A stretch of 64,000 nt of DNA from Candidatus Nomurabacteria bacterium. GTDB lineage: Bacteria; Patescibacteriota; Patescibacteriia; HK-STAS-PATE-3. Positions within the stretch are counted from its first letter, which is position 1. Each line of letters opens with the position of its first letter. The stretch covers positions 480,001-544,000 of the forward strand of contig CP060223.1 of the NCBI GenBank assembly GCA_023898465.1. Direction: 5' to 3'. Shown in pieces: positions 2,021 through 49,500 of this stretch. The position numbers and the translations under genes are program-made. The notes beneath the pieces were generated by a model. The model saw only the letters and a list, made by a program, of their open reading frames with translations, was not told the origin of the DNA and did not search any database.

Positions 2021-3367
2021 CTATCGCCCAATTCCTCGATAGTGCACGCCGGCCTTTTGCAAAGCAGACTTATCAAGCGCATTTTTACCGTCGATGAGGA
2101 CTTTTACATGATATTTCTTCCAGAGCTTGTTTGGGATATCGAGAAATGCCTGATGGTTTGTCACCAGAATCACTGCGTCTACCTTTGATAATAGAGCCTC
2201 TAGGCTCTCCACTGTGGATTTTTGTGGTACATGAGGGTCATACACCTCTACTTGCGCGCCAAGCTCTCTAAGACGCTCCTGAATGCGAAATGAGGGACTC
2301 TCGCGCACATCATCGATGTTGGCCTTATACGCTACCCCTAATATGCCTACTTTCGTACCCTTCACAGGCAGAGCAACTTGATTTAGTGCCTCTATGAGCT
2401 GCTTTACGGTATACTCTGGCATTCCATTATTAATCTCCCTCGCTAGCTTAAGGAACTTATGATCAAAGCCAATCTGCCTTGCTCGCTCAATGAGATAATA
2501 TGGATCAACGGGTATACAATGACCTCCAACGCCGCATGAAGGATAATGCGCTAAAAAGGCAAAAGGCTTTGTCTGAGCACCTTCAATAACATCTAAAATA
2601 TCAATGCCCAATTTGCTAAATGATTGTGCCATCTCATTCACAAAGGCAATATTAATATCGCGAAAAGAATTTTCCATTATCTTTGTCGCTTCCGCGGCCT
2701 TGAGAGATTCCATTGGCCGGATTGGCGCATCAATAATACTCTCATACAGCCGGATTGCCTTTGCTCTACCTTTTTTGGTATACGCGCCAATTACCCTGGG
2801 AATCGTTCGCACATTCCATTTTGCATTACCCGGATCAATTCGTTCAGGGCAATGCGCTAAGGTAAAATCTTTACCAGCATGAAGCCCAGATGTTTCTAAC
2901 ACGGGAAGGAGAACTTCTTCGCAAGTTCCAGGATTAATGGTGGACTCAATAATAATCAATTGTCCTTTGTGAAGATGCTTCGCAATTTTTTTACATGCAT
3001 CGATTACTGGACCATAATCAGGATTGTATGCGTGGTCAACTGGTGTAGGTACGCAAACAATTATAGCTTTTGCCTTTTTCACTACACTAAAATCAGTTGT
3101 AGCTAAGAAAGGATTCTTTTTTAAATTTTTACGGACTCGCACATCATCAATCGGAGATACACCAGCGCTGATCATTTCTGCTTTTTTTTGACTTCGAACG
3201 ACTCCCAGGACCTTATATCCCTTTTCAACAGCTAAGCATGCAAGTGGAAGACCAACATAACCCAATCCAACAACGGCTAAAGCCCCTTTCCTAGTTTTTT
3301 GTGAACGAATAGCACGCTTTTTACTTCGCATACTTTTGCTGCTTGAAAAACCAAGAGACTGTTTCAT
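2021..3367 (-). CDS. UDP-glucose/GDP-mannose dehydrogenase family enzyme (likely UDP-glucose 6-dehydrogenase). True start is probably an internal Met near 3331, which avoids overlap with the upstream gene.
   Basis: N-terminal Rossmann motif VVGLGYVGLPLA, typical of the UDPG/GMD dehydrogenase family; length 430-448 aa. Confidence 0.75.
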   Translation of the reverse strand: MKQSLGFSSSKSMRSKKRAIRSQKTRKGALAVVGLGYVGLPLACLAVEKGYKVLGVVRSQKKAEMISAGVSPIDDVRVRKNLKKNPFLATTDFSVVKKAKAIIVCVPTPVDHAYNPDYGPVIDACKKIAKHLHKGQLIIIESTINPGTCEEVLLPVLETSGLHAGKDFTLAHCPERIDPGNAKWNVRTIPRVIGAYTKKGRAKAIRLYESIIDAPIRPMESLKAAEATKIMENSFRDINIAFVNEMAQSFSKLGIDILDVIEGAQTKPFAFLAHYPSCGVGGHCIPVDPYYLIERARQIGFDHKFLKLAREINNGMPEYTVKQLIEALNQVALPVKGTKVGILGVAYKANIDDVRESPSFRIQERLRELGAQVEVYDPHVPQKSTVESLEALLSKVDAVILVTNHQAFLDIPNKLWKKYHVKVLIDGKNALDKSALQKAGVHYRGIGR

Positions 3368-4256
3368 TTATACCCATAGCAACATCAATGCTCGGCCCCC
3401 AATTCAACTCCTTGGCACTTTTTTGCACATCAAGACTACTCGCCATCAATTCACCGGGAATCTCCGGACCGTGCTTTGCTTCAAGATCGCTGTGCATGGA
3501 ATCTTTTATTAAGCTCCAAAGCTGGCTGATGCTGGTTTCTTGACTCGTACCAACGTTGAATATGCCGACACGATCCGAGTCAGCCGCCGCAATAAAAGCC
3601 CGCACAACGTCGGAAACGAATACGAAGTCTCGAGTTTGCGATCCGTCACCATTAATTTGCGGTGAACGATTGTGCAATACGTGATCAATAAATATTGCCA
3701 CTACACCCGCTTCACCCTTTGGATCTTGCCGAGGGCCGTATACATTTGCTAAGCGGAGTGCTGCGCTGGGCATCTTATACACTTTCGTATAAGCCGAAAG
3801 ATAATACTCAAAGGCCCGCTTCCCTATTCCGTACGGTGAAATAGGTGCAGCTAAACCAGTTTCTGGAGTTGGTCTTGCCTCATCTGCATCATAAATCGCC
3901 CCGCCGGTTGAGGCAAAGAGAAACTTCTCTACCTGTATTTCACGAGCCGCTTCAAGTAACTTAATACTACCAATAATATTAATATTGGCATCTTCGTCTG
4001 GATGTTCAAGTGAGTAGCGTAGATTTTTTTGCGCAGCTAAGTGAAATATCTGGTTCGGCTTAAACCTTTTAATTTCCTGAGCGGTCTTATCTTTACAGAT
4101 ATCAAGTTCTAAGAAATCAACCTCCGGATGCAAATACTCTTTATTGCCGGTGGACAAATCATCTATCACCAATACTCGATTACCCTGGGAGAGCAGCGCG
4201 TCAACCAAGTGAGAACCAATAAATCCAGCTCCCCCAGTTACGACGACTTTGCTCAT
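3321..4256 (-). CDS. NAD-dependent epimerase/dehydratase (UDP-sugar 4-epimerase-like SDR)
   Basis: [19 protein letters not shown] Rossmann motif followed by a YxxxK region; 311 aa, typical of GalE/UDP-xylose 4-epimerase-like extended SDRs. Confidence 0.7.
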
Positions 4257-5428
4257 AGGTATTTTTTGGCCGCCGATCGGAATTTAGCAGCTAAGGAGAG
4301 TTGCTCCCAACTAAAGCTTGCTTCTTTACGACCGAAGTGTCCATACGCTGCGGTTGGTCGATAAATAGGCCTACGTAAATTAAGGTGTTGGATAATACCA
4401 CCAGGAGTCAAATCCGCCACCTGGCGAACGATCTTTTCTAATTTACCATCGCTAATGACACCTGTGCCTTTTGTGTCGATAAGCACGCTGATAGGTTCAG
4501 CAACGCCAATGACGTAGGCGAGCTGTATTTCGCACTTCTTGGCAAGCTTTGCGCCGACAATATTTTTGGCAACATGTCTAGCCATGTATGAAGCTGATCG
4601 GTCAACCTTGGAAGGATCTTTACCAGAGAATGCTCCACCACCATGGCTACCGTGTCCTCCATAGGTATCGACAATAATTTTTCGTCCGGTCAAGCCTGCA
4701 TCAGCTGGAGGTCCACCCTTCACAAACTTTCCTGTCGCATTAATGAAGTGACGTGTTTTATTATCCATCCAGCGTCCTGCTATTGGTCGGATGACGTGCT
4801 TCATGACATCGCGCTCGACTTTTTTCTCGCTTACTTTTTCATTATGCTGCGTAGCAATAACAACAGTGTTTAAACGCTTTGCTTTACCATTTTCGTATTC
4901 GATCGCTACCTCAGTTTTACCATCCGGCCCTAAATAAGGCATTATTCCTTTCTTTCGCACGTATGCTAAGCGACGAGAAAGTTTATGAGACAGAATAATC
5001 GGCAATGGCATTAACTCAGGTGTTTCATCAGTGGCATAACCAAACATGAGTCCCTGATCACCTGCTCCTTGCTTTTTATACTTACCCTTACCCTCATCTA
5101 CACCCTGCGCAATATCAGCGCTCTGCTCATCAATTGCGACGATCACGCCGCAGTCCTGCCAATGAAATCCCATATTTGGATCAGTGTAGCCAATATCCCG
5201 AATAGTCTCTCGAGCTATTTTTGCAATATCAACATATCCCTTTGTCCTTATCTCTCCTGCAACAACAATCAAGCCGGTAGTTGCCATGGTTTCGACACCT
5301 GCGCGACTATGGGGATCCTGTCGTAATAATTCGTCAAGTATTGCGTCTGATATTTGATCGCACACCTTATCAGGGTGGCCTTCGGTTACTGACTCTGAAG
5401 TAAAGACATGATGTCGATTCGTTGACAT
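4253..5428 (-). CDS. metK: S-adenosylmethionine synthetase
   Basis: [16 protein letters not shown] signature, GGGAFSGKD motif, 391 aa. Confidence 0.9.
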
Positions 5429-5447: not shown

Positions 5448-6473
5448 TTACTGGTCTTTTGAAATACTAGCTGAAATATCAATATTTTTTGCGCCTTTAA
5501 AGTAATCAATGGTCCGGCGTAAGCCTTCTGATAAGGCCACTACTGGAAACCAGCCTAAGCGCTCTTTTGCCAAAGCTATATTAGGCACGCCCTGTATAAC
5601 TGTTGACTTAGTGTGTTCGGTAAAACGAGATCCTGATGTACTGCCCGTAAGTTCTTGAATGTACTTTACTACATCCTCTAGGCGATGTTGATCAGGACTA
5701 CCCAGATTAACTGGCCCTAACTCGCTTGATTTCATGAGTCGCAGTAAGCCCTCCACAATATCGCTGATGTAACAAAGAGTCGTGGTATCATCTGCTTTAC
5801 CGTATACCGTAATAGTTTCGTTACGCAACGCCGCATTAATCATTTCCGGCACCATTCTACCATCGTCTACGCGCAAGCGAGGACCATAGGTGTTAAAGAG
5901 TCGGGCGATTTTTGCCTTTAATGCGTATTTTTCTCGGTAGTGCACGGTTAAGCTTTCGGCAAAGCGCTTACCCTCACTAAAGGCCGATCGCGACCCAACC
6001 GGATTCACATAGCCCCAATATTCTTCTGGGTATGGAGTCCTTTCCATGGGTTCGCCATAAATGGCATCAGAAGAAGCCAAGAGAAAACTGGCTTGATATT
6101 TTTTCGCCATTTCAAGAGCATTCCGAGTTGCTTGAGCATTTGCTACCAGTGTTTCAACTGGCATCTGTAGATAATCCTTTGGTGAAGTCGGAGAGGCGAA
6201 ATGATAAATTTCCTGCACTCCTTGGAACTCCACTTGAAAAGGTTTAAGACCTGGCTCGTGATCAAGATCTATCGGATCAGACAAATCATGCTTCACAAAC
6301 TCAAAATTTGGATTTTGGAGAAGATGATTTATGTTTTCTTCTCGACCAGTTGAAAAATTGTCTAAACAAATAACCTTGTGTTGCTTCACCAGCTCATCAC
6401 AAAGATGAGATCCAATGAATCCTGCTCCACCTGTTACTAATATGTTTTTTCTTTCAAAAATGGGTCTGCTCAT
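5448..6473 (-). CDS. UDP-glucuronate decarboxylase (UDP-xylose synthase, UXS)-like extended SDR
   Basis: [19 protein letters not shown] motif and YGEPMERTPYPEEYWGYVNPVGSRSAFSEGKRFAESL, which closely resembles the UXS/ArnA-decarboxylase core. Adjacent to a Ugd-like gene. Confidence 0.7.
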   Translation of the reverse strand: MSRPIFERKNILVTGGAGFIGSHLCDELVKQHKVICLDNFSTGREENINHLLQNPNFEFVKHDLSDPIDLDHEPGLKPFQVEFQGVQEIYHFASPTSPKDYLQMPVETLVANAQATRNALEMAKKYQASFLLASSDAIYGEPMERTPYPEEYWGYVNPVGSRSAFSEGKRFAESLTVHYREKYALKAKIARLFNTYGPRLRVDDGRMVPEMINAALRNETITVYGKADDTTTLCYISDIVEGLLRLMKSSELGPVNLGSPDQHRLEDVVKYIQELTGSTSGSRFTEHTKSTVIQGVPNIALAKERLGWFPVVALSEGLRRTIDYFKGAKNIDISASISKDQ

Positions 6474-6482
6474 ACGCAGTAC

Positions 6483-7199
6483 TTAACGATAATGACCTAA
6501 AATGTCATGGTATCGAACACTAAGAAGCTCCCAAAAAGTTTTTATATAATCTGAGGGACGCACCTTACTAGCAAAATCATTCTTCCAAGTCACAGGAATT
6601 TCCTTCATCGTGAAGTGAAATTTTTTTGCCAGGAAAAGTATTTCAAAATCAAATCCCCACCCTCGTAGCTGCTGCTTTTGAAAAAGCATACGGCAGCGCT
6701 TACTATACAGTTTAAATCCGCATTGCGTATCTTCTATGCCGGACACTGCTAACCATTGAATCAACTTATTTCCAATTCGTCCCAGCGTTACCTTCACCGA
6801 AGATTGACGAACGGTAATATCAGCTTCGGGTAATGCTCGCGAGCCAATCAACACATCATACTGCTTACGCTCCGGCCAAAACTTAGCGAAATCTTGAATC
6901 GGAGTGGAGAGATCAGTATCGGTCAGCAACACCCAGACACCTCTTGCTTCTAGCATTCCAGCCTTAACGGCAGCACCTTTACCGCCATGTGGCACAGAAT
7001 GCACCCGGACCGGCTTCCCATAACCAGCTGCTAATCGAGCAGTACCATCCGTGCTACCATCATCCACCACCACTACCTCGTAGCTAAGATCGGGGTAGTG
7101 CTTGGGGAAATATTCAAGGATAGTTTCCAAGCTGGGAGGCAGGCGCTTCGCTTCATTATACGCCGGCAAAACAATGGAAAGCTCAACAGGATTTGACAT
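6483..7199 (-). CDS. GT2 family polyprenyl-phosphate glycosyltransferase (DPM1/ArnC/GtrB-like)
   Basis: LSIVLPAYNEAKRLP ... VVVVDDGSTDGT ... DxD-like region; 238 aa; directly followed by a GtrA-like gene. Confidence 0.7.
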   Translation of the reverse strand: MSNPVELSIVLPAYNEAKRLPPSLETILEYFPKHYPDLSYEVVVVDDGSTDGTARLAAGYGKPVRVHSVPHGGKGAAVKAGMLEARGVWVLLTDTDLSTPIQDFAKFWPERKQYDVLIGSRALPEADITVRQSSVKVTLGRIGNKLIQWLAVSGIEDTQCGFKLYSKRCRMLFQKQQLRGWGFDFEILFLAKKFHFTMKEIPVTWKNDFASKVRPSDYIKTFWELLSVRYHDILGHYR

Positions 7200-7299
7200 G
7201 ACTATTTCTTAATGTACGGCTCAATACTGAATAAAATGTGTACCGAGCTCGGCCGCTAGTATACCAATTTTTAAGCCTTTGGACAAGCAGGTCATATAC

Positions 7300-7731
7300 T
7301 TAATGCTGACGAAAGGTCCAAAATTTATTGGCAAAAAAATTCCAAAATAGCACAATGAGCACTGACACTATCTTTGCATAAATATCGTGCAATCCTACTA
7401 CGACAACAAAAAACCAAAGTCCTAATTCGGTTAGTACTGCGCCTACCGCACTCACAGCGACAAAGCGAGTGTATTGCCGACGAAAGGCTCTTTGACGATC
7501 ACGAAAAGTCCAGCGCTTATTTAAGGTAAAGCTTAAACTTACTGCGCTTAAAAATGCAACCGCGTTTGCTGCTAAAAAGGGAACGTGAAAAAAACGAGTG
7601 AGCGAAAAATAAATACTAAAGTCTAGGCAGGTATTCCCAAACCCAACAACACCAAACTTAATAAATTGCGCCAGGCCAGGCCGGCGCTCAATGAATGGGT
7701 GTTGGCGAATGTAGTTAACAAGCTGCTGCAT
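7300..7731 (-). CDS. GtrA-family small membrane protein (putative lipid-linked sugar translocase)
   Basis: 143 aa, 4 TM helices, FIKFGVVGFGNTCLDFSIYF GtrA-like N-terminus. Confidence 0.6.
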   Translation of the reverse strand: MQQLVNYIRQHPFIERRPGLAQFIKFGVVGFGNTCLDFSIYFSLTRFFHVPFLAANAVAFLSAVSLSFTLNKRWTFRDRQRAFRRQYTRFVAVSAVGAVLTELGLWFFVVVVGLHDIYAKIVSVLIVLFWNFFANKFWTFRQH

Positions 7732-10526
7732 TATCTTGGCTCAAAGTTTGCTCCAACGCTGATGCCACCGCGGAAAGCTGGATCAAAAGTAAACATTTGT
7801 TCAATGACACTTCCGTTACCATCAAAAACTCTCAGGTGTGGCCCTCCGCCAATCCCTGCACCCACAATGATATCGTCAGCCCCATCAGCATTCACATCCG
7901 CGCTCGCAATGCGTACTCCTCCGCGAAAATTCTCGGCAAAAGCGAAAAATTGAGACTGCACTTCCCCACTCGCATTAAATACTCGAACATGCGGTCCACC
8001 ATTACTTAAAGGAGCAACGACTATTTCTGATACGCCATTACCATCCACATCACCAACTGCCAGGTCTAAACCGATTCTAAAGTAGCTTGGGTAAGCGAAA
8101 AATTGAGAGACCAGTCCTCCACTCCCATTAAAAACACGCACATGTGGCCCACCGTTACTAATTGGCGCTACAACAATTTCAGGAATAGCATCCCCAGTCA
8201 CATCACCACATGCAACAGAGAGACCTATGCGAAAATATGATGGGTAGGCATAAAATTGACCGTATAAGCCTCCGCCGCTAAAAATGCGCACTTGGGGCGC
8301 TTTTCCTGCACCAGTACCCACAATAATTTCATCACGTCCATCACCATCCAAGTCGCAGGTTGCAATGCTTACTCCACCTCGATAACTTGGCGCATAGGCC
8401 ATAAACTGGTATTCCAAAGCCCCACGCGAGGAAAAGACGCGAATGTGTGGACCACCACTTGAAGCTGGCGCGCTTACAAATTCCATTAATCCATCTCGAT
8501 CAATATCACCTGAAGTAATATTCACTCCTCCAGTAAAGTTTGGAGCATAGGCCATTGTCTCCCATAGGAGACTCCCATCCTGACGCAAGGTTCGCACGGT
8601 TGGACTATGGTTGCTTAAAGGCGCGCTGAGTAGATTAACCCAAACGTCGTAGTTCATCGTATCAGTCGCTGTGCTCACTAACCCTGCCTGATCAGTGGCC
8701 TTCACTGTCACGGTGTTCAATCCCGGCCCTAAAGTAAGCACGCCGGAGTAGGTATTGCCATCACGAAAAGCAAGACGCCCATTCACGGTCACTTCAGCAA
8801 TTCCTGAATCATCGTCACGTGATACGCCAACGATATAATGACGTCGATTCCCGGTTGAGCTACCTGCAAAAGGATACGTTATGGTAACCGTTGGAGCCAG
8901 GGTGTCGATTTTTACTTCAAAGCTATGGGCACTTTCAATGTTGTCAGCAAGATCTTCGGCATAATATTCCACAGTTATATTACCTTTAGGCAAAGTCACT
9001 GCACTGGAGTATGTCTGCCAACTACCGCTATTAATGCGATAAAAAATTGCACTCACCCCAGCGGCATCATCGCTAGCGGACAATGTCATCTGCGGGGCTG
9101 TGCTATAAAAACCATTTTGGCCGTTTGGACTACTGGGACTGAGACTAGCTGAGGATACTGGCGGCGTAACATCAGTAGTGATAACAGACAAGCCGGCATC
9201 AATATCTAAAAGCCCGTATCCATACTCGAGATCATAGCCACTACTACCGAGGTCCTTAGCTGTTTCAGTAAGCACGCCTTTAGCATCAGCAGGATCAGCG
9301 CCGGCTGCTAAAAAGAGTGCTAAGGCAGCACTCACATGTGGAGTGGCCATCGACGTGCCCTGATAGCCCACATAACCAAAAGTGGTAAAATCAGCTGGTA
9401 GGCTATCCCCATCGAGGTTTGTGAATCCTTGCTGGATAATTGATGAGGAGCCATCCCCGCCTGGTGCAACCAAGGCGATATTTTGTCCATAATTAGAGTA
9501 CGAGGCGCGAGTATTTTGTGTGGTATTTCCGGTAGCTCCCACGGCAATAACTCCTGAGGTGCGAGCTGGGTATAGCAAGGTTGAGCTATTTGCATTTCCG
9601 GTAGCAGCGACCACTAGAATTCCCTGAGCAATAGCATCATTTACTGCGTCAGTCAGAGCCTGACTGTAGCTACTTGTTCCCAAGCTCATGGATATAATAT
9701 CAGCGCCGTGTGTTCGCGCATAATCAATCCCCTGCGCAATATCAGCAGTAGTACCATATCCATCTCTGGCTAAAACTTTAACCGGCATGATTGTGCTGTG
9801 ATATGCCAAACCCGCAGCGCCGAGGCTGTTATGTGTTGTCTCTGCTATGGTGCTACTTACATGTGTACCATGTCCATTATCATCATTCGGATGAGTATCT
9901 TCGTTTACAAAGTCATATCCAGTTGTGAAATTTGTGGCACTAAAATCTGGCGCTTTTGCATACTCTGCACCAGCTGATAAGCAATTACCCGGATTTTCTA
10001 CTAAACACTTCGCTGGGTTAGGGTCTGTATATGCTTGATAGGCAACGCCAGTATCTAAGACTGCGACGATAACACTCGGATCACCACCATGGGTTGGACT
10101 GCTCGTGTCATAATCCCAGGCCTGAGACGCTTTTACCTTTGTAAAATTCCATTGCTGGTTATACAAAGGATCATTAGGAGTGAAGGTTGCTCCTACTAAA
10201 TAATTTGGCTCTATATACCGAGTCTCAGGCAATGAGGCAAGTCTATCCTGCAAATCATTTGCCTCAGTTTCATTTGGTAATGAAAAAAGAAAACTCTGCG
10301 CACTTAATTGCTGCACAGTTAAGGAGGGAAAGGTCGAAAGTATAGTGGCGAGATGATCATTATCGGTAATAATGTCACCTTCCTCATTTGCACTTATACC
10401 AGTTGTGGTAAATCCCACAACCCGCTGACCAGGATATACAAACTGACTTTGCGCTTCTACTTGCGGACTAAAAAAACTGAAAATCCAAACTAGAACTATT
10501 CCGCCTATGAAGCGCCCCCATCTCAT
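7731..10526 (-). CDS. Secreted subtilisin-like serine protease (peptidase S8) with C-terminal FG-GAP/VCBS-like repeats
   Basis: Signal peptide; catalytic-triad motifs VAVLDTGV (Asp), HGTHVSSTIA (His) and GTSMATPHVSAALALF (Ser). The C-terminal 300 aa is a series of FxAYxxxxRGGVxxAxxDVxGDG repeats of FG-GAP type. Confidence 0.8.
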   Translation of the reverse strand: MRWGRFIGGIVLVWIFSFFSPQVEAQSQFVYPGQRVVGFTTTGISANEEGDIITDNDHLATILSTFPSLTVQQLSAQSFLFSLPNETEANDLQDRLASLPETRYIEPNYLVGATFTPNDPLYNQQWNFTKVKASQAWDYDTSSPTHGGDPSVIVAVLDTGVAYQAYTDPNPAKCLVENPGNCLSAGAEYAKAPDFSATNFTTGYDFVNEDTHPNDDNGHGTHVSSTIAETTHNSLGAAGLAYHSTIMPVKVLARDGYGTTADIAQGIDYARTHGADIISMSLGTSSYSQALTDAVNDAIAQGILVVAATGNANSSTLLYPARTSGVIAVGATGNTTQNTRASYSNYGQNIALVAPGGDGSSSIIQQGFTNLDGDSLPADFTTFGYVGYQGTSMATPHVSAALALFLAAGADPADAKGVLTETAKDLGSSGYDLEYGYGLLDIDAGLSVITTDVTPPVSSASLSPSSPNGQNGFYSTAPQMTLSASDDAAGVSAIFYRINSGSWQTYSSAVTLPKGNITVEYYAEDLADNIESAHSFEVKIDTLAPTVTITYPFAGSSTGNRRHYIVGVSRDDDSGIAEVTVNGRLAFRDGNTYSGVLTLGPGLNTVTVKATDQAGLVSTATDTMNYDVWVNLLSAPLSNHSPTVRTLRQDGSLLWETMAYAPNFTGGVNITSGDIDRDGLMEFVSAPASSGGPHIRVFSSRGALEYQFMAYAPSYRGGVSIATCDLDGDGRDEIIVGTGAGKAPQVRIFSGGGLYGQFYAYPSYFRIGLSVACGDVTGDAIPEIVVAPISNGGPHVRVFNGSGGLVSQFFAYPSYFRIGLDLAVGDVDGNGVSEIVVAPLSNGGPHVRVFNASGEVQSQFFAFAENFRGGVRIASADVNADGADDIIVGAGIGGGPHLRVFDGNGSVIEQMFTFDPAFRGGISVGANFEPR

Positions 10527-11743
10527 GTCGACAGTGAACTTAAGATAACTTTACTGTTTTGCGTTACACCGTCCCGTAAGTAATTTATATCCACTTCAGC
10601 GCCTATAGTCACGGACTGGAGTAATTGCTGCAAGCTGTGGGACTGGTCAATATTTTGACCATTCACGGAGATAATGATGTCGCCGTCTTGTAGACCCGCC
10701 TCGCTGGCCGGCCCACCCTCAACAACTGCTGGGTCAGCCGCGGTCCCTGCCAACAAAAACCCATCATTTCGCTGATTCGTTTGGCTCTCACTTAATCCTA
10801 CTGAGTTATGCAAATCATAACCATGCACACCTAATCGAGTCCGTGTGATAAGTCCTGAACTGGTATAGGCCTGAAGAGCTGTTCGTATATATACAACAGG
10901 GAAAATACGATTTGGATTTTCTTGTTGCAAATATATACCTTGCAGAGAACCGTTTTGATCAACCACAATTGACCCCGGGCTCACCGCCGCTTCTCCACTC
11001 AGCAAAATATCGTGGGATAAGACCTCGCTTGATTCAAGCGAAAGCGGATCACTGTTTATTGATGCATTTGCGCTGACTAACTGCGTACTACGAATTTGCG
11101 GCACTCCAAGTGATCGATTCGCACTTAAAATATATAGCCCTTGCCCGGCGTGCAAATCCGCAGCTACACCAAAGCTCAATACTTGGTATTGCTCTCCGCT
11201 CACTTGACCAAGGCTTAGATCGCTAATTGGATCATAGGCAAGAATACTTACGTCCAACTTTTTTCCTGCATTAGTATATGCGACAACCTGACCACTAATG
11301 GTACTTGCATTAACTTTTCCATCAAAAACAAAGATACCATCAGTGGTAACAAAAGCTCCTGTACCAAGGTACGTGTACTGAGTATCCTCAACTTGATATA
11401 CACTAAGGAGTGATTGAGTCACTCGGTCATAAAGCGCCTGCCTGTCTTGGTCAATCCGATCGGTGCTCCCTGTCTCCCGAATAATAACCTCTCGAGCCTC
11501 ATTTGAGGTTTCTGCGAGACGAATATCTCGCCAAAAAGGCCATTGAGGGTTCTGTTGATATAGACTATTGAGAAGTACCATCCCTACTGCCCCAGATAAC
11601 AAACCAAATAGAACCGTGAAAAGAAGAATAGAAATCCAAGAAACTCGTTTACTTGGTTGCTCAATTGTACTTTGGTTATAAAGCTTCTCAACTGAGGCTT
11701 CTTGGGAATATTTTGGGGATGTGGGAGCGATCTTTGGTTTCAT
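10523..11743 (-). CDS. Membrane-anchored trypsin-fold (HtrA/DegP-like) protein with a C-terminal PDZ domain; the catalytic His and GNSGG Ser motifs appear degenerate
   Basis: N-terminal TM helix. S1C-like core where the expected TNxHV is replaced by FVFDGKV and GNSGGP by GEAAVSPG. PDZ motif DGDIIISVNGQNI. Start overlaps the upstream stop by 4 nt. Confidence 0.5.
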   Translation of the reverse strand: MKPKIAPTSPKYSQEASVEKLYNQSTIEQPSKRVSWISILLFTVLFGLLSGAVGMVLLNSLYQQNPQWPFWRDIRLAETSNEAREVIIRETGSTDRIDQDRQALYDRVTQSLLSVYQVEDTQYTYLGTGAFVTTDGIFVFDGKVNASTISGQVVAYTNAGKKLDVSILAYDPISDLSLGQVSGEQYQVLSFGVAADLHAGQGLYILSANRSLGVPQIRSTQLVSANASINSDPLSLESSEVLSHDILLSGEAAVSPGSIVVDQNGSLQGIYLQQENPNRIFPVVYIRTALQAYTSSGLITRTRLGVHGYDLHNSVGLSESQTNQRNDGFLLAGTAADPAVVEGGPASEAGLQDGDIIISVNGQNIDQSHSLQQLLQSVTIGAEVDINYLRDGVTQNSKVILSSLST

Positions 11744-11753
11744 ACTTGTACAA

Positions 11754-12518
11754 CTAAACCCAGGAGGCGGTTCCTAATATAATCACGAGTAAGATAAATG
11801 ATAACACAAGAGGACGCAGTATCATGTTGCGTTCAATTTTCTCCTTTAATGCAGCCCGATGCATGGCCACCAAGGTGTAGTAAATGATTGTAATAACAGC
11901 TCCATTTACAATGAAATTTGTTGGAAAAAAGCTCATCACGATAAAGACCTCACTGAGCATGATGGAAAAAACAGCAAACCAGCGCCAACCCCGCACATCC
12001 AGGGTCTTTTTTACCCATAACATTTCATAAGAAACGCTCACGACTACTAAAACCCAAAAAGGCAAGAGCATGAACCAGTTAAATCCCAAAAAAACTATCA
12101 TTCCGTAAAGAGAGGCGCTGGCAAAGAACATAACCACTAACGCAAATCCATTTGAAAGGTTTTCTAAAGCAAAGGGTTGATATCTACCCGGCGAGTAGTG
12201 GTAATGAAAGATTTGTCGATAATAAAAACCAAGAGCAAACGGGATGATAATAGTGATGCCCCATCGAATAAATGACGAGGTGATAAACAAGACAATACTT
12301 TGACTACTGAGATATAACCAAAATGGCAGGATAAGAAGTGACCAAAAAGTTAGCGACCTCCACTGCCGTCCAGCTAGCAAATACACACTAAGGATATTCC
12401 ACACCGTGAGAATGGCGCCGATTATCCAAACTAAGCCAGGACGGAGAGTGAGGACAAACATCCCGCTAAGGAAGACTATTGTTGAAAAGGCTGGTAAAAA
12501 TCTAATAAACGCAAGCAT
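11754..12518 (-). CDS. Polytopic integral membrane protein (7-8 TM), unknown function
   Basis: 254 aa, almost entirely hydrophobic helices; tightly packed with the protease genes. Confidence 0.45.
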   Translation of the reverse strand: MLAFIRFLPAFSTIVFLSGMFVLTLRPGLVWIIGAILTVWNILSVYLLAGRQWRSLTFWSLLILPFWLYLSSQSIVLFITSSFIRWGITIIIPFALGFYYRQIFHYHYSPGRYQPFALENLSNGFALVVMFFASASLYGMIVFLGFNWFMLLPFWVLVVVSVSYEMLWVKKTLDVRGWRWFAVFSIMLSEVFIVMSFFPTNFIVNGAVITIIYYTLVAMHRAALKEKIERNMILRPLVLSFILLVIILGTASWV

Positions 12519-12519
12519 G

Positions 12520-13137
12520 CTATATTCTTCCTAAACCATTTGGGTTATAACCGTTTTTTACCTCTTCGCCATCACTAAAACCGTCACCATCGCTATCTTC
12601 TTCAGTCGGATCAGTTTGATATACATACACCTCTAGAAGGTCGTTTAAGCCATCACCATCGGTGTCGCTTTTCTCTGGGTCAGAGCCATATTGCGCCTCT
12701 AGACGATCGAGTAGTCCATCATTATCTGTATCGGTTCGATATGACACCGAGCTATTTACATTACTCGTATTCGTATTTTGATTTACTGCCCTACTGCTTG
12801 ATGTAGCACTCGTCTGAGTTTGCTGGACTTCACTTGCATTTGTTCCTGGTTGACGTTCAGGTAAAATTCGACGGATCGAATCTTGTAATGCATTCGTGGT
12901 GGAATTTGTTGTTGCTTCAGAGTCATCTTTTTTTGGCACGAGTAAAAGAATTCCACCCCCAACTATTACAATCCCGCTGAGAGAAAGGAGTAGCATGGTA
13001 AATACCCGAGGACTCTTGGGCGATATAACTTTCTTAACATCTGGCTCACTAAATGCGACTGGTTCATCAGGCAAACCAGGACTGTTCAGGGTCCCGCGAG
13101 AGTCGTCGTGCTCAAATTCTGAGTTGGTCTCGGGCAT
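12520..13137 (-). CDS. Membrane-anchored protein with a Thr/Asn/Ser-rich linker and C-terminal thrombospondin type-3-like Ca-binding repeats (DxDxDG); paralogue A
   Basis: TM helix LLLSLSGIVIVGGGILLLV; C-terminus DTDNDGLLDRLEAQYGSDPEKSDTDGDGLNDLLEVYVYQTDPTEEDSDGDGFSDGEEVKNGYNPNGLG. Confidence 0.6.
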   Translation of the reverse strand: MPETNSEFEHDDSRGTLNSPGLPDEPVAFSEPDVKKVISPKSPRVFTMLLLSLSGIVIVGGGILLLVPKKDDSEATTNSTTNALQDSIRRILPERQPGTNASEVQQTQTSATSSSRAVNQNTNTSNVNSSVSYRTDTDNDGLLDRLEAQYGSDPEKSDTDGDGLNDLLEVYVYQTDPTEEDSDGDGFSDGEEVKNGYNPNGLGRI

Positions 13138-13143
13138 AGCTCA

Positions 13144-13863
13144 TTAACTCTCGAGTCGACCGGATCCCAGAGGGCTATATCCGTTATTTACCTCTTCACC
13201 ATCCAAATAGCCGTCGCCATCGGAATCAGGGTTCAATGGATCGGTGTTATATATGTACACTTCTTTAAAATCGCCAAGATCGTCTCCATCGCTATCACTT
13301 AGGGTTGGATCAGTACCAAGAGCAGCCTCTTGCGTATCAGTTATGCCATCTCTGTCAGTATCAACGTTGGAATTTGTGTTTTGCGCACTGCTGTTTTGAT
13401 TCGACTGATTTGTACTTGTGTTCGTGTTTGACGTATTTGTAGCCTGATTAGCATTTGAGGTGTTTGTATTTGTGGTAAATTCGGTACCAGTATTCAAATT
13501 ACTCGTATTAGTATTGCTTGTGCGATTTACCACAGTGTTACTTGCCTGATTGCTTACCGTATTGGTCGTTTCTGTATTTACATTAGTATTGGTGTCGCTG
13601 GGTAAAAAGAAGAAGTAATATGCAGCCGCTCCACCCGCTACCACCACCAGGATAACGAGGAGTACCCAAAGCCAAGCCTTAGATCCTTTTTTAGGTGGAG
13701 GCGTTTGTGCCTGCCACTGAGGCTGAGGCGGAGTATTTTGATTTTGTTGCGGAATAAAGGGATTTTGAGGTGCTGGCGGAGGTGTAGCTTGTGGAAAACT
13801 TGGAGCTGCACGCATGCCTTGATCTGGCTGCGCTGTTGGTGTTGACTCTTGGTTCTCAAACAT
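13144..13863 (-). CDS. Paralogue B of the TSP3-repeat anchor protein (Pro/Gln-rich N-terminus, TM helix, TN-rich low-complexity linker, DxDxDG repeats). Start placed at the internal Met MFENQ.
   Basis: C-terminus DTDRDGITDTQEAALGTDPTLSDSDGDDLGDFKEVYIYNTDPLNPDSDGDGYLDGEEVNNGYSPLGSG is a near-duplicate of the neighbouring gene. The ORF-track N-terminal extension is probably spurious. Confidence 0.55.
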   Translation of the reverse strand: MFENQESTPTAQPDQGMRAAPSFPQATPPPAPQNPFIPQQNQNTPPQPQWQAQTPPPKKGSKAWLWVLLVILVVVAGGAAAYYFFFLPSDTNTNVNTETTNTVSNQASNTVVNRTSNTNTSNLNTGTEFTTNTNTSNANQATNTSNTNTSTNQSNQNSSAQNTNSNVDTDRDGITDTQEAALGTDPTLSDSDGDDLGDFKEVYIYNTDPLNPDSDGDGYLDGEEVNNGYSPLGSGRLES

Positions 13864-14032
13864 ACAAATCCCCTTTACATTAATTACAACGCCTTGAGTG
13901 TACCTGATTTTATAAAAAAAGACTAGAGAATAATATCGAGAGATTGTCAACTCTCTACCAAAAAGCCCCAGTTGGTACTGGAGCATGATTGGTATCGCCG
14001 GCTTACTAAGGAATTCGGCGAGAAGTTCTCAA

Positions 14033-14569
14033 CTAATGAAGATTGGTTTGCAACTGAGCCTTTTGTAGGAGCTTCATTGCCTCGCTAGTAATTACCTGCA
14101 CCTTTTCCTCCCCTTTATCAACTATTTTTTGTAGCACTTCAAAGGGGTGTAGCTTGGTAAAGTTTCCTTGCACCACTTTCTTTGTTTGCTTCTGAATTGC
14201 TCGCGGCATAACTTTTACGACATCATTCATCATATGCTGAGGGGAAAAGATATATGCTGCAGTAACCTTACCACTGTGCATAATCGTCTGCAGACTGCTC
14301 TCTAACTGACGGAGAAACTTCACTCGCAAGGAAGCCTCCACATCTTCTCGCACCGCGCCAGAAGCAAGAGTTTTTCCACCTCGGCGTTTGGCAAAATGGC
14401 CCTCCTTATCTGAGTATTCCGGCGCCTCGATTCTATATGAGAGCACGTTTTCTATTGTGCCATTCATTGCCTCATAGAGCTCGAGGGATTTTGTCCCAGT
14501 CACAATAAACAAGGCGCGCTCATTAGTAAACTGAGGCAGTGTTTGCGTAATATGTAATCTTCGTCGCAT
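14033..14569 (-). CDS. Hypothetical protein, possibly eRF1-like (Host_attach/baeRF-like) fold. Start placed at MRRRLH, which has GGAGGA 5 nt upstream.
   Basis: Pattern ...ALFIVTG...YSDKEGHFAKRRGG...VREDVEASLRVKFLRQL...AAYIFSPQHMM...KDLT-like tail. This recalls the host-attachment/bacterial eRF1-like family from memory; not verifiable here. Confidence 0.35.
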   Translation of the reverse strand: MRRRLHITQTLPQFTNERALFIVTGTKSLELYEAMNGTIENVLSYRIEAPEYSDKEGHFAKRRGGKTLASGAVREDVEASLRVKFLRQLESSLQTIMHSGKVTAAYIFSPQHMMNDVVKVMPRAIQKQTKKVVQGNFTKLHPFEVLQKIVDKGEEKVQVITSEAMKLLQKAQLQTNLH

Positions 14570-14776
14570 AGATCCTCCTACATAAGTTAATAGTTTGAAG
14601 CTATCTCTATATGTATTACCTGAGGGCGAAGAGCATTCTTTCACTTCCACAATGGGGATGAAAAAACCGAGGAGGCAGTTGGCGTTCACTCGGATTCCCC
14701 TGGCGCAGCTGGTGCTGTAGTTGCAGTCCTTTGCTGAATAGATTGTATGTTTAGGTTACTCGCCACAAAAGCACAT

Positions 14777-14788
14777 GTCAATATTGAC
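14777..14788. promoter_or_regulatory. Perfect 12-bp palindrome GTCAATATTGAC about 200 nt upstream of the baeRF-like/TSP3 operon and downstream of tRNA-Gln; candidate operator
   Basis: Seen directly in sequence; each half resembles a TTGACA -35 element. Confidence 0.3.
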
Positions 14789-14913: not shown

Positions 14914-14987
14914 TGGCTCGGGAGCAGGGACTCGAACCCCGGTTACTAGGGCCAGAACCTAGCGTCCTACCACTAGACGACTCCCGA
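14914..14987 (-). tRNA. tRNA-Gln (anticodon CUG), 74 nt with encoded CCA
   Basis: Manual fold of the reverse complement: acceptor TCGGGAG/CTCCCGA with U1-A72 and G73 (classic bacterial tRNA-Gln identity), D-stem GTCT/GGAC, anticodon stem CTAGG/CCTAG with loop TTCTGGC, T-loop TTCGAGT, 3' CCA. Confidence 0.85.
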
Positions 14988-46222: not shown

Positions 46223-46541
46223 CCCCTGTTGAAGCTTGCCGCACCCAGCGCTGCTCAATATAGAGCACTCGCCACCACCATCGCCCTAAGAAATACCCAC
46301 CAATCGCTCCAAGTAGTAACAAGCCAATTTGAATGTATGGTGGAAGCGCACATCCCCAGGTCCAATGTATAACCTGTCCATTTTTCTCAGCCCAGCTTAA
46401 ATACCACTGCTCAATTCCTAAATGTAACAGCAAACTTAACAGCACGCCGAACACAGTAGCGCTAATGAGATAAAGTGCATGTTTGAACGGGGTTGCTTTA
46501 AGTGGTCCGCGATGAAACATATTTAGAAAAGATTTAACCAA
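46203..46541 (-). CDS. Small membrane protein (112 aa)
   Basis: Two or three TM helices; overlaps neighbours by a few nt on both sides (operon-like). Confidence 0.4.
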   Translation of the reverse strand: MVKSFLNMFHRGPLKATPFKHALYLISATVFGVLLSLLLHLGIEQWYLSWAEKNGQVIHWTWGCALPPYIQIGLLLLGAIGGYFLGRWWWRVLYIEQRWVRQASTGDYEEKS

Positions 46542-49500
46542 CCAAAGAGGTCTTGCACTGATCCTAGGATTACCTGCACAACTGTTTGTTCTTGCTGTGG
46601 AGTAAGAATAGTCAGAGGCTCAGACACCGAGGTCTGTCCACTGGAATCCGTGCTCTCCACCTTGAACTGATACACCGAACCTGGCTCAAAACTTGTCAAA
46701 ACGACAACGTGCCGTTTCGTATAGTTTGTATCAAGTGGCGTGGCTTCGGTAATTGCTTCATCAGCACTGGCAACACCCTGTCGATAGTACACTCGACTAG
46801 TGGCTGGCTCATTTGTTAGCCAGCTGATGATGGTTTGGACTTTAGTATCACGGCCCGGGGAAAGGGCTGAGTCAGTTTGAATCTGCGAGATAAGCGGAGG
46901 CGCATTCTCATCGCCGGTCACAAAGGAGTCAAGCGTCTTGGAAACCGTATTGCCATCTGCATCAACACTTACCAACTCAATTGCGTAAGTCACTCCAGAC
47001 TCAAAACTATCTACAGTCACCTGATGAATAATGGTTTGCGTATCATCTCGAACACTGCTTAACTCATCGACCGCTTTGATGTTATTGCGATAAGGTATCA
47101 CCCGTACAGTGGCATCTGCATCACGAGTGGTGGTCCAGCGGAATACCGCTTCCTCGCTTGATATTTTTTCGACGGCATAATTTTGAATATCAAAAACCTG
47201 CGGATCAGTAGTGAAACTAAAGTCTGCACTTTGCGTTGTCTGGCTAATCTTTGTTCGACTACGCACTTGGTAATGATAGGTTGTATCAGGCTGTAAGTTG
47301 TAAACCGTAACTGAATGGGTCGTGCTATAGGTTTCCGCATCACCCACCACCTGAGTATACTGTTGTGCCAGAGCAAAGTCAGCATCTGAAGCGTAAGCTA
47401 CCAGGGCATTAGAGTCTTTATCAGTTCTCCATTGGATAGTGACTGAAGTTGGACCAACATCCACGCGAGGCTCTCCACTAATAAGCGGAGTAGGAATTAT
47501 TTTTGATAACTCCTCGATGAGTTGATACTGCTCTTCTAAACTTAGCTCTAAAATATCAATGCTAACATTGCCATAGAGATCATTCAGTAGATCAAGATTT
47601 TCTTCAAGGATATTCTTAATCTCATCAGGATTGTTTCTATCGATTGGTGCAGTGCCAGACGTAGTGAATGTTTTATCGCCGGTAATCGACGTGTTGCCGC
47701 TTGCATCAACGGAAATAACTCGATAATGATAAGTAGACCCACTGTTTAATTGTTGCAGAGTAAGGCTATGACTGGTGGCATAAGTCCAGTCACCATAAAT
47801 AGTTCCGTAAACTGTGGTAAGGCCAAATTGAATAAAGCTATTCGCTTCCTCACTTGTAGTCCAACGCACAGTGGCAGCGCTATCGCTAATGTTTACCACC
47901 TCGATGCCGGTTATGCTTGGATTTGTCTCATCCTTACTACCATCAATAGCATCTTGTTCACGTTGCTCTACATCTGATTCCTCAGACAGCATTTCTAAAG
48001 TGCTAAAGGATTTTTCTGTACTCGTTGTGCTATTACCTGAAGCATCAACTGACGAAACAGTGTAATAGTATGTCGTCTTAGGGCTGAGATTACTTAAGGT
48101 AACTAAATGGGTTAGGTTGAGACTTTCGTCTAAGCTCGTTGTAACCGTATAATTTCCCGAGCTTGTCCCATAACGCAATTGAGATGTTGCTCGCTCGTTA
48201 CTTAGCCAGGTAACTACTGCTCGAGTGTCAATGACCGGATCGGCCTGTATATTTGATAAGACTGGTGGCACTGTATCACTAGTCGTAACAAAGGAGTAAT
48301 ATTCACCACCGTTGTTATCAAAAGCTACGCCTGAGGTTACATAGTAGTAATACAGGGTACCGTTTGTCAGTCCTGATAACTTCACTAAATGATTCATCGT
48401 TGGTGGAGTATCCAGACCAACCTCAATGGCATCACTCATATCTGAATTCACTGAATAGAAGACGTGTGAATCAGACTCTACATCAGTTAACCAGCTTATA
48501 CTCGCTTCAGTATTACTCACCTCTTGCGTACTTACATTAGAAATTGCTGGACCACTTAAGGTTGTTACCGTATATCCATCACCTCCGTCAGAGTCAGTTG
48601 CCGAGTTCCCACCCGGATCCTCTGAACGAACTCTGAAATAGTACGTTGTCGAGGGATCGAGTCCGGTAAGTATGACTCGGTGAACACCAACACCTGCTTC
48701 ATTATCCATCAGAGTTGCAACACCGATAGTCGTACCAAAATCAGCTGGGGTATCTGAATATCCAATAGTAGAATCAGAGAGCTCATCTGTCTCCCAGGTA
48801 ATAGTGACCGTCTGAGTACCTATCTGACTGGTTGCTACATTTGAAATAGTTGGAGGCGTACTATCAGTACCTCCTTGTCCGTTGGCAGACTCTGAGACAA
48901 CCGCCGAGTAGTAAGAAAAATTTCCATCGCTATCTTCGCTTGATATCTTATACCAATAGCTTGTATCTGCTGTAACACTTTGATCGAGATAATAGTTAAT
49001 TGCTCTATCGCTTATGTGGCTAATCGTACTATAGCTCGTGCCGTCTGTTGAACGATACACCGTGTATTCGCTAAAGCCTGGGTCGGGCAGTGCTACTGCC
49101 TTCCAAGAAATAAAGAGTTGATAGGCATCAGCTTCTACATTACTAATATCACGAATAATCACTGTTGTTGGTGTTTCTGGTGTTACCGCTGATGCACTAC
49201 TGCTGGTATTTTTGTACGCATCACGGAAACGGACATAGACTGTATCTGGATCAGTAACCAAGGAAATAGTTGAGGAAGAGGCATAGCTTACCCACGTCGC
49301 GCCAACAAAGTCACTCCGCAAAGATACTTGCATTTCAAGGCTGCTATCATCAGAGCCGGAGAGATCGAGAGAAGCGGGGTCAGTACGTGCGTCCACCACA
49401 ATTGCCGGACTACCGAGGACTGGGTCTTTTACATCAAGAGTAAAGGCGCTTGTTTCATCGCTGGCTGTATTATTTGCTAATTCCCCATCATCAATAGTGA

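Follow-up and report, generated by a model that had tools for sequence, protein, structure and literature searches.

DegP, DegQ and DegS share a protease-plus-PDZ architecture, DegS is held in the membrane by an N-terminal anchor, and DegP with a mutated catalytic Ser still binds clients as a chaperone. Systems of the GtrA/GtrB(/GtrC) and CsbB/GtcA/YfhO types carry out lipid-linked sugar modification. Patescibacteria account for a large fraction of bacterial diversity, most of them are found attached to other cells, and to our knowledge the biogenesis of their envelopes is largely unknown. An HtrA-fold pseudo-protease of magnetotactic bacteria, MamO, promotes its partner's proteolysis (Hershey et al. 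2016, PMC4794232). Here we analyze a 64,000-nucleotide (nt) stretch of a Candidatus Nomurabacteria bacterium genome (GenBank assembly GCA_023898465.1, contig CP060223.1, positions 480,001 to 544,000; hereinafter designated the window), which encodes a membrane-anchored HtrA-fold protein (hereinafter designated dead HtrA) between a DUF5656-like polytopic membrane protein and an S8-family subtilase (S8). Dead HtrA is very probably a conserved pseudo-protease within a conserved envelope operon of Parcubacteria-group Patescibacteria.

Dead HtrA resembles DegP, DegQ and DegS in architecture and fold and is anchored at its N-terminus as DegS is, but it lacks the catalytic His and Ser, has one PDZ domain only and scores below the NCBIfam TIGR02037 and Pfam Trypsin_2 cut-offs. 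With MamO (PMC4794232), it has in common a degenerate HtrA active site, membrane association and an active protease encoded alongside. MamO partners with another HtrA, MamE, and has metal binding via a di-His motif as its known extra function. In the locus studied here, by contrast, the protease is an S8 subtilase that is sometimes absent, and the pseudo-protease has a PDZ domain, a conserved MKxKxxPTSPK tail and the constant company of DUF5656 and sugar genes; no second HtrA-like open reading frame (ORF) that might encode a MamE-type partner was found in the window. The analogy with MamO appears loose, with no common ancestry shown beyond the HtrA superfamily.

The sugar genes recall the GtrA/GtrB and CsbB/GtcA/YfhO systems in that GtrA lies beside a glycosyltransferase of the polyprenyl-phosphate type (GT2) and a polytopic membrane protein is encoded in the operon. 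The DUF5656-like protein, however, with 254 amino acids (aa) and very short loops, gives no GT-C-like fold match, and the known systems contain neither a pseudo-protease nor a subtilase. The subtilase is comparable to mycosin and PrtP-type cell-envelope subtilases, its best NCBIfam resemblances, having an S8 domain with extra C-terminal domains and being encoded within an envelope machinery operon. It differs from them in its NCBIfam scores (136 against a cut-off of 279 and 105 against 300), in its Ig-like and FG-GAP tail without a C-terminal transmembrane (TM) anchor, and in the absence of type VII secretion system genes. We found no paper on DUF5656, this HtrA family or this operon in the literature.

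A predicted pseudo-protease with an HtrA fold

Dead HtrA begins with the cytoplasmic tail MKPKIAPTSPK, followed by a TM helix (approximately residues 36–64), a protease fold and a single PDZ domain (PDZ_2, E = 1e-12, 48.5 bits against a cut-off of 27). The protease domain falls barely under the Pfam Trypsin_2 cut-off (27.5 versus 27.6 bits), and the protein scores 68.1 bits against NCBIfam TIGR02037 (degP_htrA_DO), for which the cut-off is 416.2. An AlphaFold2 model built on 72 family sequences has a predicted local distance difference test score (pLDDT) of 89.8, and the top Foldseek matches of the model are DegP, DegQ, MucD and DegS, with E-values of 4.5e-21 to 1e-17 and TM-scores of 0.6–0.8.

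HMMER alignments to DegP (1ky9) and others locate the catalytic positions. The TNNHV motif of DegP, containing the catalytic His, lies opposite FDGK(V), which places K143 or a gap at this position; the catalytic Asp is kept as D175, SDIAL of DegP being aligned with SDLSL; and GNSGG lies opposite VSPGS, with P256 in place of the catalytic Ser. A first inspection of the DNA (hereinafter the original prediction) had proposed an HtrA fold with a PDZ domain in which the His and Ser motifs are replaced, and hence a candidate pseudo-protease. The alignment to DegP bears out the replacement of both motifs, and triad loss extends the assignment from the window protein to its whole family. Judged from sequence and model, dead HtrA is predicted to keep the HtrA fold with its catalytic chemistry lost.

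The family came to light in an exhaustive profile search over 1.84 billion cluster representatives (50%-identity clusters), which gave more than 1400 matches at E ≤ 1e-30, whereas word-indexed homologue searches had returned only 7, 2 and 7 matches. The best 150 of the more than 1400 matches are nearly all full-length (360–430 aa), and the family counts given here rest on the 145 normal-length sequences among them. The triad is absent in 141 of these 145 representatives. His occupies the catalytic His column (window residue 143) in 5/145 and Lys in 15/145; the catalytic Asp column (175) holds Asp in 40/145, and the catalytic Ser column (256) holds Ser in 16/145. All three residues coincide in only four sequences, which read TNKHV, DxA and GNSGGP and are canonical HtrAs. 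Because these four show His, Asp and Ser exactly in the assigned columns, they serve as an internal control that the columns are correct. The triad was found in none of about 25 further members encoded at genome and metagenome loci.

The PDZ domain and its R301..LGV305 loop are conserved in the family. Half of the N-termini are also alike: 72 of the 145 representatives start with M-K-x-K-x-x-P-T-S-P-K, followed by (L/I)(E/D)xLY and then one TM helix (window residues 1–25, positions 11669–11743), and this conserved cytoplasmic tail may be a site of binding or of phosphorylation. A metagenome-wide scan for MKxKxxPTSPK, made with a degenerate DNA pattern, returned 120 stretches. Dead HtrAs with confident scores are encoded in 24 of these and a truncated copy in L110, the others being mostly short chance frames. 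Wherever a long ORF has the exact motif running into a TM helix, it encodes a dead HtrA, in one case truncated. A pair of identical 271-aa ORFs (L056 and L103) starts with the same tail and gives no dead-HtrA match.

Source records call members of the family "serine protease" or "S1C family serine protease". By the residues at its catalytic positions, this large family now annotated as serine protease is predicted to be catalytically dead, which corrects a systematic annotation error.

A conserved operon around DUF5656 and dead HtrA

About 30 related loci were collected by protein look-up, from species-representative genomes and from the metagenome scan, and were annotated with hidden Markov models built from the orthologues. 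The pattern M[KD]PKIAPT contributed three genome loci; tblastn did not confirm its remaining 60 matches as relatives. A DUF5656-like gene lies immediately upstream of dead HtrA in all assessable loci (L001–L011, 23 metagenome loci and the divergent L132, whose DUF5656-like neighbor is recognized with an hhalign probability of 96%). This adjacency persists where identity between the HtrA-like proteins drops to 23–27%, and it spans the candidate phyla Nomurabacteria and Kerfeldbacteria, one locus belonging to a Kerfeldbacteria metagenome-assembled genome.

S8 follows dead HtrA in most loci, typically with a 4-nt overlap. Four of the 24 newly collected loci lack it (L045, L048, L050 and L130), and there dead HtrA directly abuts GtrA, with gaps of 2–3 nt in L045, L048 and L130. 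GtrA sits directly behind S8, or behind dead HtrA where S8 is absent, and GtrA, GT2 and a short-chain dehydrogenase/reductase (SDR) then follow in every sufficiently long locus except L127, where none of them was recognized after dead HtrA. MetK is often found after the SDR gene and keeps this position in L001, L003–5, L008 and L011. Junctions are tight, with gaps of 0–11 nt or overlaps of 1–4 nt in most loci. In the window, where transcription runs 5′ to 3′ through the eRF1-like gene, TSP3-A, TSP3-B, the DUF5656-like gene, dead HtrA and S8 to GtrA, the gaps are 6 nt between TSP3-A and TSP3-B, 1 nt between TSP3-B and the DUF5656-like gene and 10 nt between the latter and dead HtrA; the stop of dead HtrA overlaps the start of S8 by 4 nt and the stop of S8 overlaps the start of GtrA by 1 nt.

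The conserved unit is a DUF5656–dead HtrA core, usually joined by S8 and then by GtrA, GT2 and SDR (5448–7731), and it reaches beyond the block of 7731–14689 that the original prediction had outlined as a surface display or processing unit. The exported or anchored products and the conserved operon fit such a role better than housekeeping proteolysis; the block as drawn would form the upstream half of the envelope-biogenesis operon and is not the conserved unit.

Three loci show further variation. L127 encodes a DUF2207 membrane protein upstream (932–2842) and a Wzz/GNVR-like chain-length-determinant protein right after dead HtrA (5782–6585), replacing S8 and GtrA. In the S8-less loci L045 (3087–4175) and L050 (4356–5417), a PD40/DPPIV_N-type beta-propeller protein of roughly 355 aa is encoded immediately upstream of DUF5656, and this free-standing propeller may substitute for the FG-GAP propeller fused to S8. 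Another locus, L008 (CAYWEH010000029.1), is labelled uncultured Gammaproteobacteria, probably in error at the level of the bin, and has the complete module of Patescibacteria type: DUF5656, dead HtrA, S8 with FG-GAP, GtrA, GT2, SDR and MetK.

The partners encoded in the operon

The DUF5656-like protein is modeled with nine helices (pLDDT 84), one more than the eight TM segments first proposed. It scores 9.9 bits against DUF5656 (PF18900), for which the cut-off is 23.3, and its orthologues reach 18.9–20.5 bits; a precomputed database annotation of the same window protein lists PF18900. On these scores we class it as a distant, sub-threshold relative of DUF5656. A positive-inside count over 31 orthologues assigns loops 2, 6 and 8 to the cytoplasm and predicts an N-in/C-out topology. 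The best-conserved motif, Y113-Q114-P-x-A-L-E-N (residues 113–120), lies on the predicted cytoplasmic face, and the C-terminal T-A-x-W253-x on the predicted outer side. The C-termini of the window protein (11754–11768) and of 30 orthologues read T/S-A/T-x-W plus one or two residues, the Trp being present in 31/31.

S8 comprises a signal peptide, a pro-region, a catalytic domain (residues 151–438), two Ig-like/OmpL47-type domains (476–626) and a C-terminal FG-GAP region. It matches Peptidase_S8 at E = 3e-53 (181.3 bits, cut-off 21.8), and alignment to subtilisins identifies the triad D158/H219/S392 together with the oxyanion residue N311. The region of about residues 670–930 exceeds the Pfam cut-offs for both FG-GAP_3 (68.4 versus 26.9 bits, four stretches) and FG-GAP (47.6 versus 22.1 bits, three stretches). 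The description of an S8 protease with an intact triad and an FG-GAP C-terminal third is confirmed in both parts. Asp, His, Asn and Ser are intact in every complete S8 orthologue. The tail varies by locus, the proteins having about 930–960 aa with FG-GAP, about 680–715 aa, or 459 aa and no tail in L010 (2352–3731). In the near-identical L009 (2344–3976), S8 is split into two overlapping ORFs, probably by an assembly frameshift or as a pseudogene.

GtrA and GT2 are assigned well above their cut-offs (103.6 versus 26.1 and 80.8 versus 23.3 bits, respectively). The best NCBIfam resemblances of GT2 include ArnC, PpgS, AglJ and dolichyl-phosphate hexose transferase, all below cut-off, and the NCBIfam matches of SDR are generic. 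Beyond SDR, the minus strand of the window continues with MetK (4253–5428), an NDP-sugar epimerase (3321–4256), UDP-glucose dehydrogenase (2021–3367) and a 650-aa membrane glycosyltransferase of the PMT_2/GT-C type (60–2012). Going by these family assignments, GtrA, GT2, SDR, the epimerase, UDP-glucose dehydrogenase and PMT_2 together would make up a complete lipid-linked route for extracytoplasmic glycosylation.

A proposed non-catalytic adaptor and its alternatives

We favor, with a probability of roughly 0.55, the reading that these genes form a Patescibacteria envelope-maturation operon in which dead HtrA serves as a non-catalytic adaptor. Dead HtrA would be a binding module on the outside of the membrane, where its PDZ domain and the cleft kept from the protease fold would hold exported polypeptides or the tails of partner proteins, and DUF5656 would tether it to the membrane or work with it. 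Dead HtrA would then present envelope proteins to S8 for processing, and the proteins so held might also be modified through the lipid-linked-sugar route of the downstream genes. The TSP3 anchors with their TN/S-rich stalks are plausible clients or accessories specific to some lineages, and the eRF1-like gene and a nearby palindrome would be bystanders.

Several observations weigh against this proposal. Presentation to S8 is not a universal role, because four S8-less loci couple dead HtrA to GtrA, and conserved order is no proof of a shared pathway, because MetK also keeps its place after SDR. The metagenome loci were picked by the PTSPK motif, so only about half of the family is covered, and the searches returned no informative fold or sequence relative for the DUF5656-like protein. 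The conserved C-terminus of DUF5656 has a variable last residue, unlike a classical PDZ ligand, and its binding to the PDZ domain remains speculation. A pairing of the YQP loop of DUF5656 with the PTSPK tail is in keeping with L132, which lacks both, but L082 and L095, as counter-examples, have PTSPK without YQ, and the pairing is unsupported.

The genes might instead be independent envelope housekeeping genes whose order is merely inherited, streamlined Patescibacteria genomes rearranging little. The best argument for such inertia is MetK, which has no obvious link to the other genes and nevertheless holds its position in L001, L003–5, L008 and L011; the placement of 44 of the 54 large window ORFs on one strand and the coming and going of S8 and TSP3 genes point the same way. 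Inertia is harder to reconcile with an adjacency that survives down to 23–27% identity and across Nomurabacteria and Kerfeldbacteria, with junctions that overlap or span a few nucleotides, and with the closure of dead HtrA onto GtrA at 2–3 nt where S8 is lacking (L045, L048 and L130), and we consider it rather unlikely. Doubtful in another way, and slightly more so, is an extension of the adaptor proposal, in which DUF5656 and dead HtrA with its PDZ domain would form a Patescibacteria-specific membrane machine not recognized before. Through the YQPxALEN loop and the MKxKxxPTSPK tail, this machine would connect the cytoplasm with the cell surface, and it would couple the delivery of a lipid-linked sugar (GtrA, GT2 and SDR) with the handling of surface proteins, the TSP3 anchors for instance, which would be captured, glycosylated or anchored, and trimmed by S8.

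It is improbable that the six genes of 7731–14689, with the TSP3 pair and the eRF1-like gene among them, make up the dedicated surface-display unit first proposed, with control exerted from the palindrome. The TSP3 pair and the eRF1-like gene do occur in the same order in a relative of 45% identity (L001/L006). Yet no other locus has the eRF1-like gene, behind which a terminator-like hairpin lies; unrelated genes stand in place of the long TSP3 gene in L005, L011, L007, L008 and L009; palindromes of this kind occur at chance frequency; and the conserved GtrA, GT2 and SDR genes lie outside the range. Residual proteolysis by the HtrA-like protein itself through a non-canonical nucleophile and base, for example a Ser/Lys pair of K143 with S255 or S258, has very little to recommend it. 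The window protein offers material for such a site, with Lys in place of the His, a Ser on either side of P256 (VSPGS) and the retained D175, but the candidates are unconserved (K143 in 15/145, Ser at 256 in 16/145, D175 in 40/145), and a catalytic set would face purifying selection, as it does in the neighboring S8.

The adaptor reading would add a second, independent case after MamO of the HtrA scaffold in non-catalytic use, with architecture, partners and phyletic home all new for an HtrA-fold pseudo-protease, and it overturns no established view. The conserved operon links dead HtrA and DUF5656 with an active subtilase and with genes for a lipid-linked-sugar route, and DUF5656, the invariant partner, gains a testable context. 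The membrane machine, if true, would be a new kind of system for the maturation of surface proteins, in bacteria with hardly any study of their envelopes.

Accessory genes and other features of the window

The features of the locus are collected in Table 1. The block of 7731–14689 contains six protein genes rather than the seven first counted. All six lie on the minus strand as predicted; this co-directionality is unremarkable, as 44 of the 54 large ORFs in the window share that strand. The tRNA-Gln gene, behind which the original prediction placed the block, is confirmed upstream.

Table 1 Features of the dead HtrA locus, in window coordinates.
Feature	Position	Strand	Description	Score or basis
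tRNA-Gln(CTG)	14914-14987	minus
Palindrome GTCAATATTGAC	14777-14788	none	perfect, 12 bp
eRF1-like gene	14033-14569	minus	Host_attach / bacterial eRF1-like, 178 aa, AGGAGG Shine-Dalgarno site	Host_attach 28.8 bits
Terminator-like hairpin	13965-13984	minus	hairpin then T-run, between eRF1-like gene and TSP3-A	consensus scan, pattern match only
TSP3-A	13144-13863	minus	about 239 aa from MFENQ	TSP3_bac E=4.7e-11
TSP3-B	12520-13137	minus	205 aa	TSP3_bac E=4.5e-19
DUF5656-like	11754-12518	minus	polytopic membrane protein, 254 aa
Dead HtrA	10523-11743	minus	membrane-anchored HtrA-fold predicted pseudo-protease, one PDZ, 406 aa
S8	7731-10526	minus	secreted S8 subtilase, 931 aa
GtrA	7300-7731	minus	GtrA-family small membrane protein, 143 aa	GtrA_DPMS_TM E=1e-29
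GT2	6483-7199	minus	polyprenyl-phosphate-sugar-synthase type, 238 aa	Glycos_transf_2 E=1e-22
SDR	5448-6473	minus	NDP-sugar SDR (dehydratase, epimerase or UXS-like), 341 aa	Epimerase E=3e-44

TSP3-B has an N-in single-pass anchor, a TN/S-rich stalk and three predicted Ca-binding TSP3 repeats, and TSP3-A has a Pro/Gln-rich tail, a TM helix, a TN-rich stalk and TSP3 repeats. The start of TSP3-A is most likely at 13863 rather than at the ORF maximum of 13986. Both proteins exceed the TSP3_bac cut-off of 25 bits (TSP3-B, 68.4 bits in three stretches; TSP3-A, 42.8 bits in two stretches) and are 59% identical across the C-terminal 80 aa, which upholds their identification as paralogous TSP3 anchor proteins. 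As a pair they are not conserved beyond the closest relative (L001/L006), the more distant loci having one short TSP3 protein or none. TSP3-B occurs in the window and in L001, L003–5, L011, L041 and L108 (its TSP3 domain is 43% identical to that of the L005 orthologue), and is found in none of L007–L010, L045 and L127. The long paralogue TSP3-A is retained only in the nearest relative (L001/L006) and in L050, the genes at its position in L005, L011, L007, L008 and L009 being unrelated. The TSP3 genes are lineage-variable accessories and not part of the fixed core.

The 178-aa eRF1-like protein passes the Host_attach cut-off narrowly (28.8 versus 26.7 bits) and stays below that of baeRF_family12 (22.8 versus 27.7 bits), leaving the proposed Host_attach/eRF1-like fold a marginal call; a sequence search of the PDB gave no match for it. 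Among the related loci the gene is shared only with L001 (36% identity), and the terminator-like hairpin separates it from the TSP3 operon. It is an adjacent but separate unit outside the conserved module.

The perfect palindrome GTCAATATTGAC upstream of the eRF1-like gene exists as described and carries no signal: perfect palindromes of 12 bp number 19 in the window and 16 ± 3.6 in shuffled sequences, which puts it at chance level. The window also has seven perfect 14-bp palindromes, where a simple random-sequence estimate expects about four, and four of 16 bp, where about one is expected. An unusually large ORF of about 1800 aa lies on the minus strand at 46523–51943.

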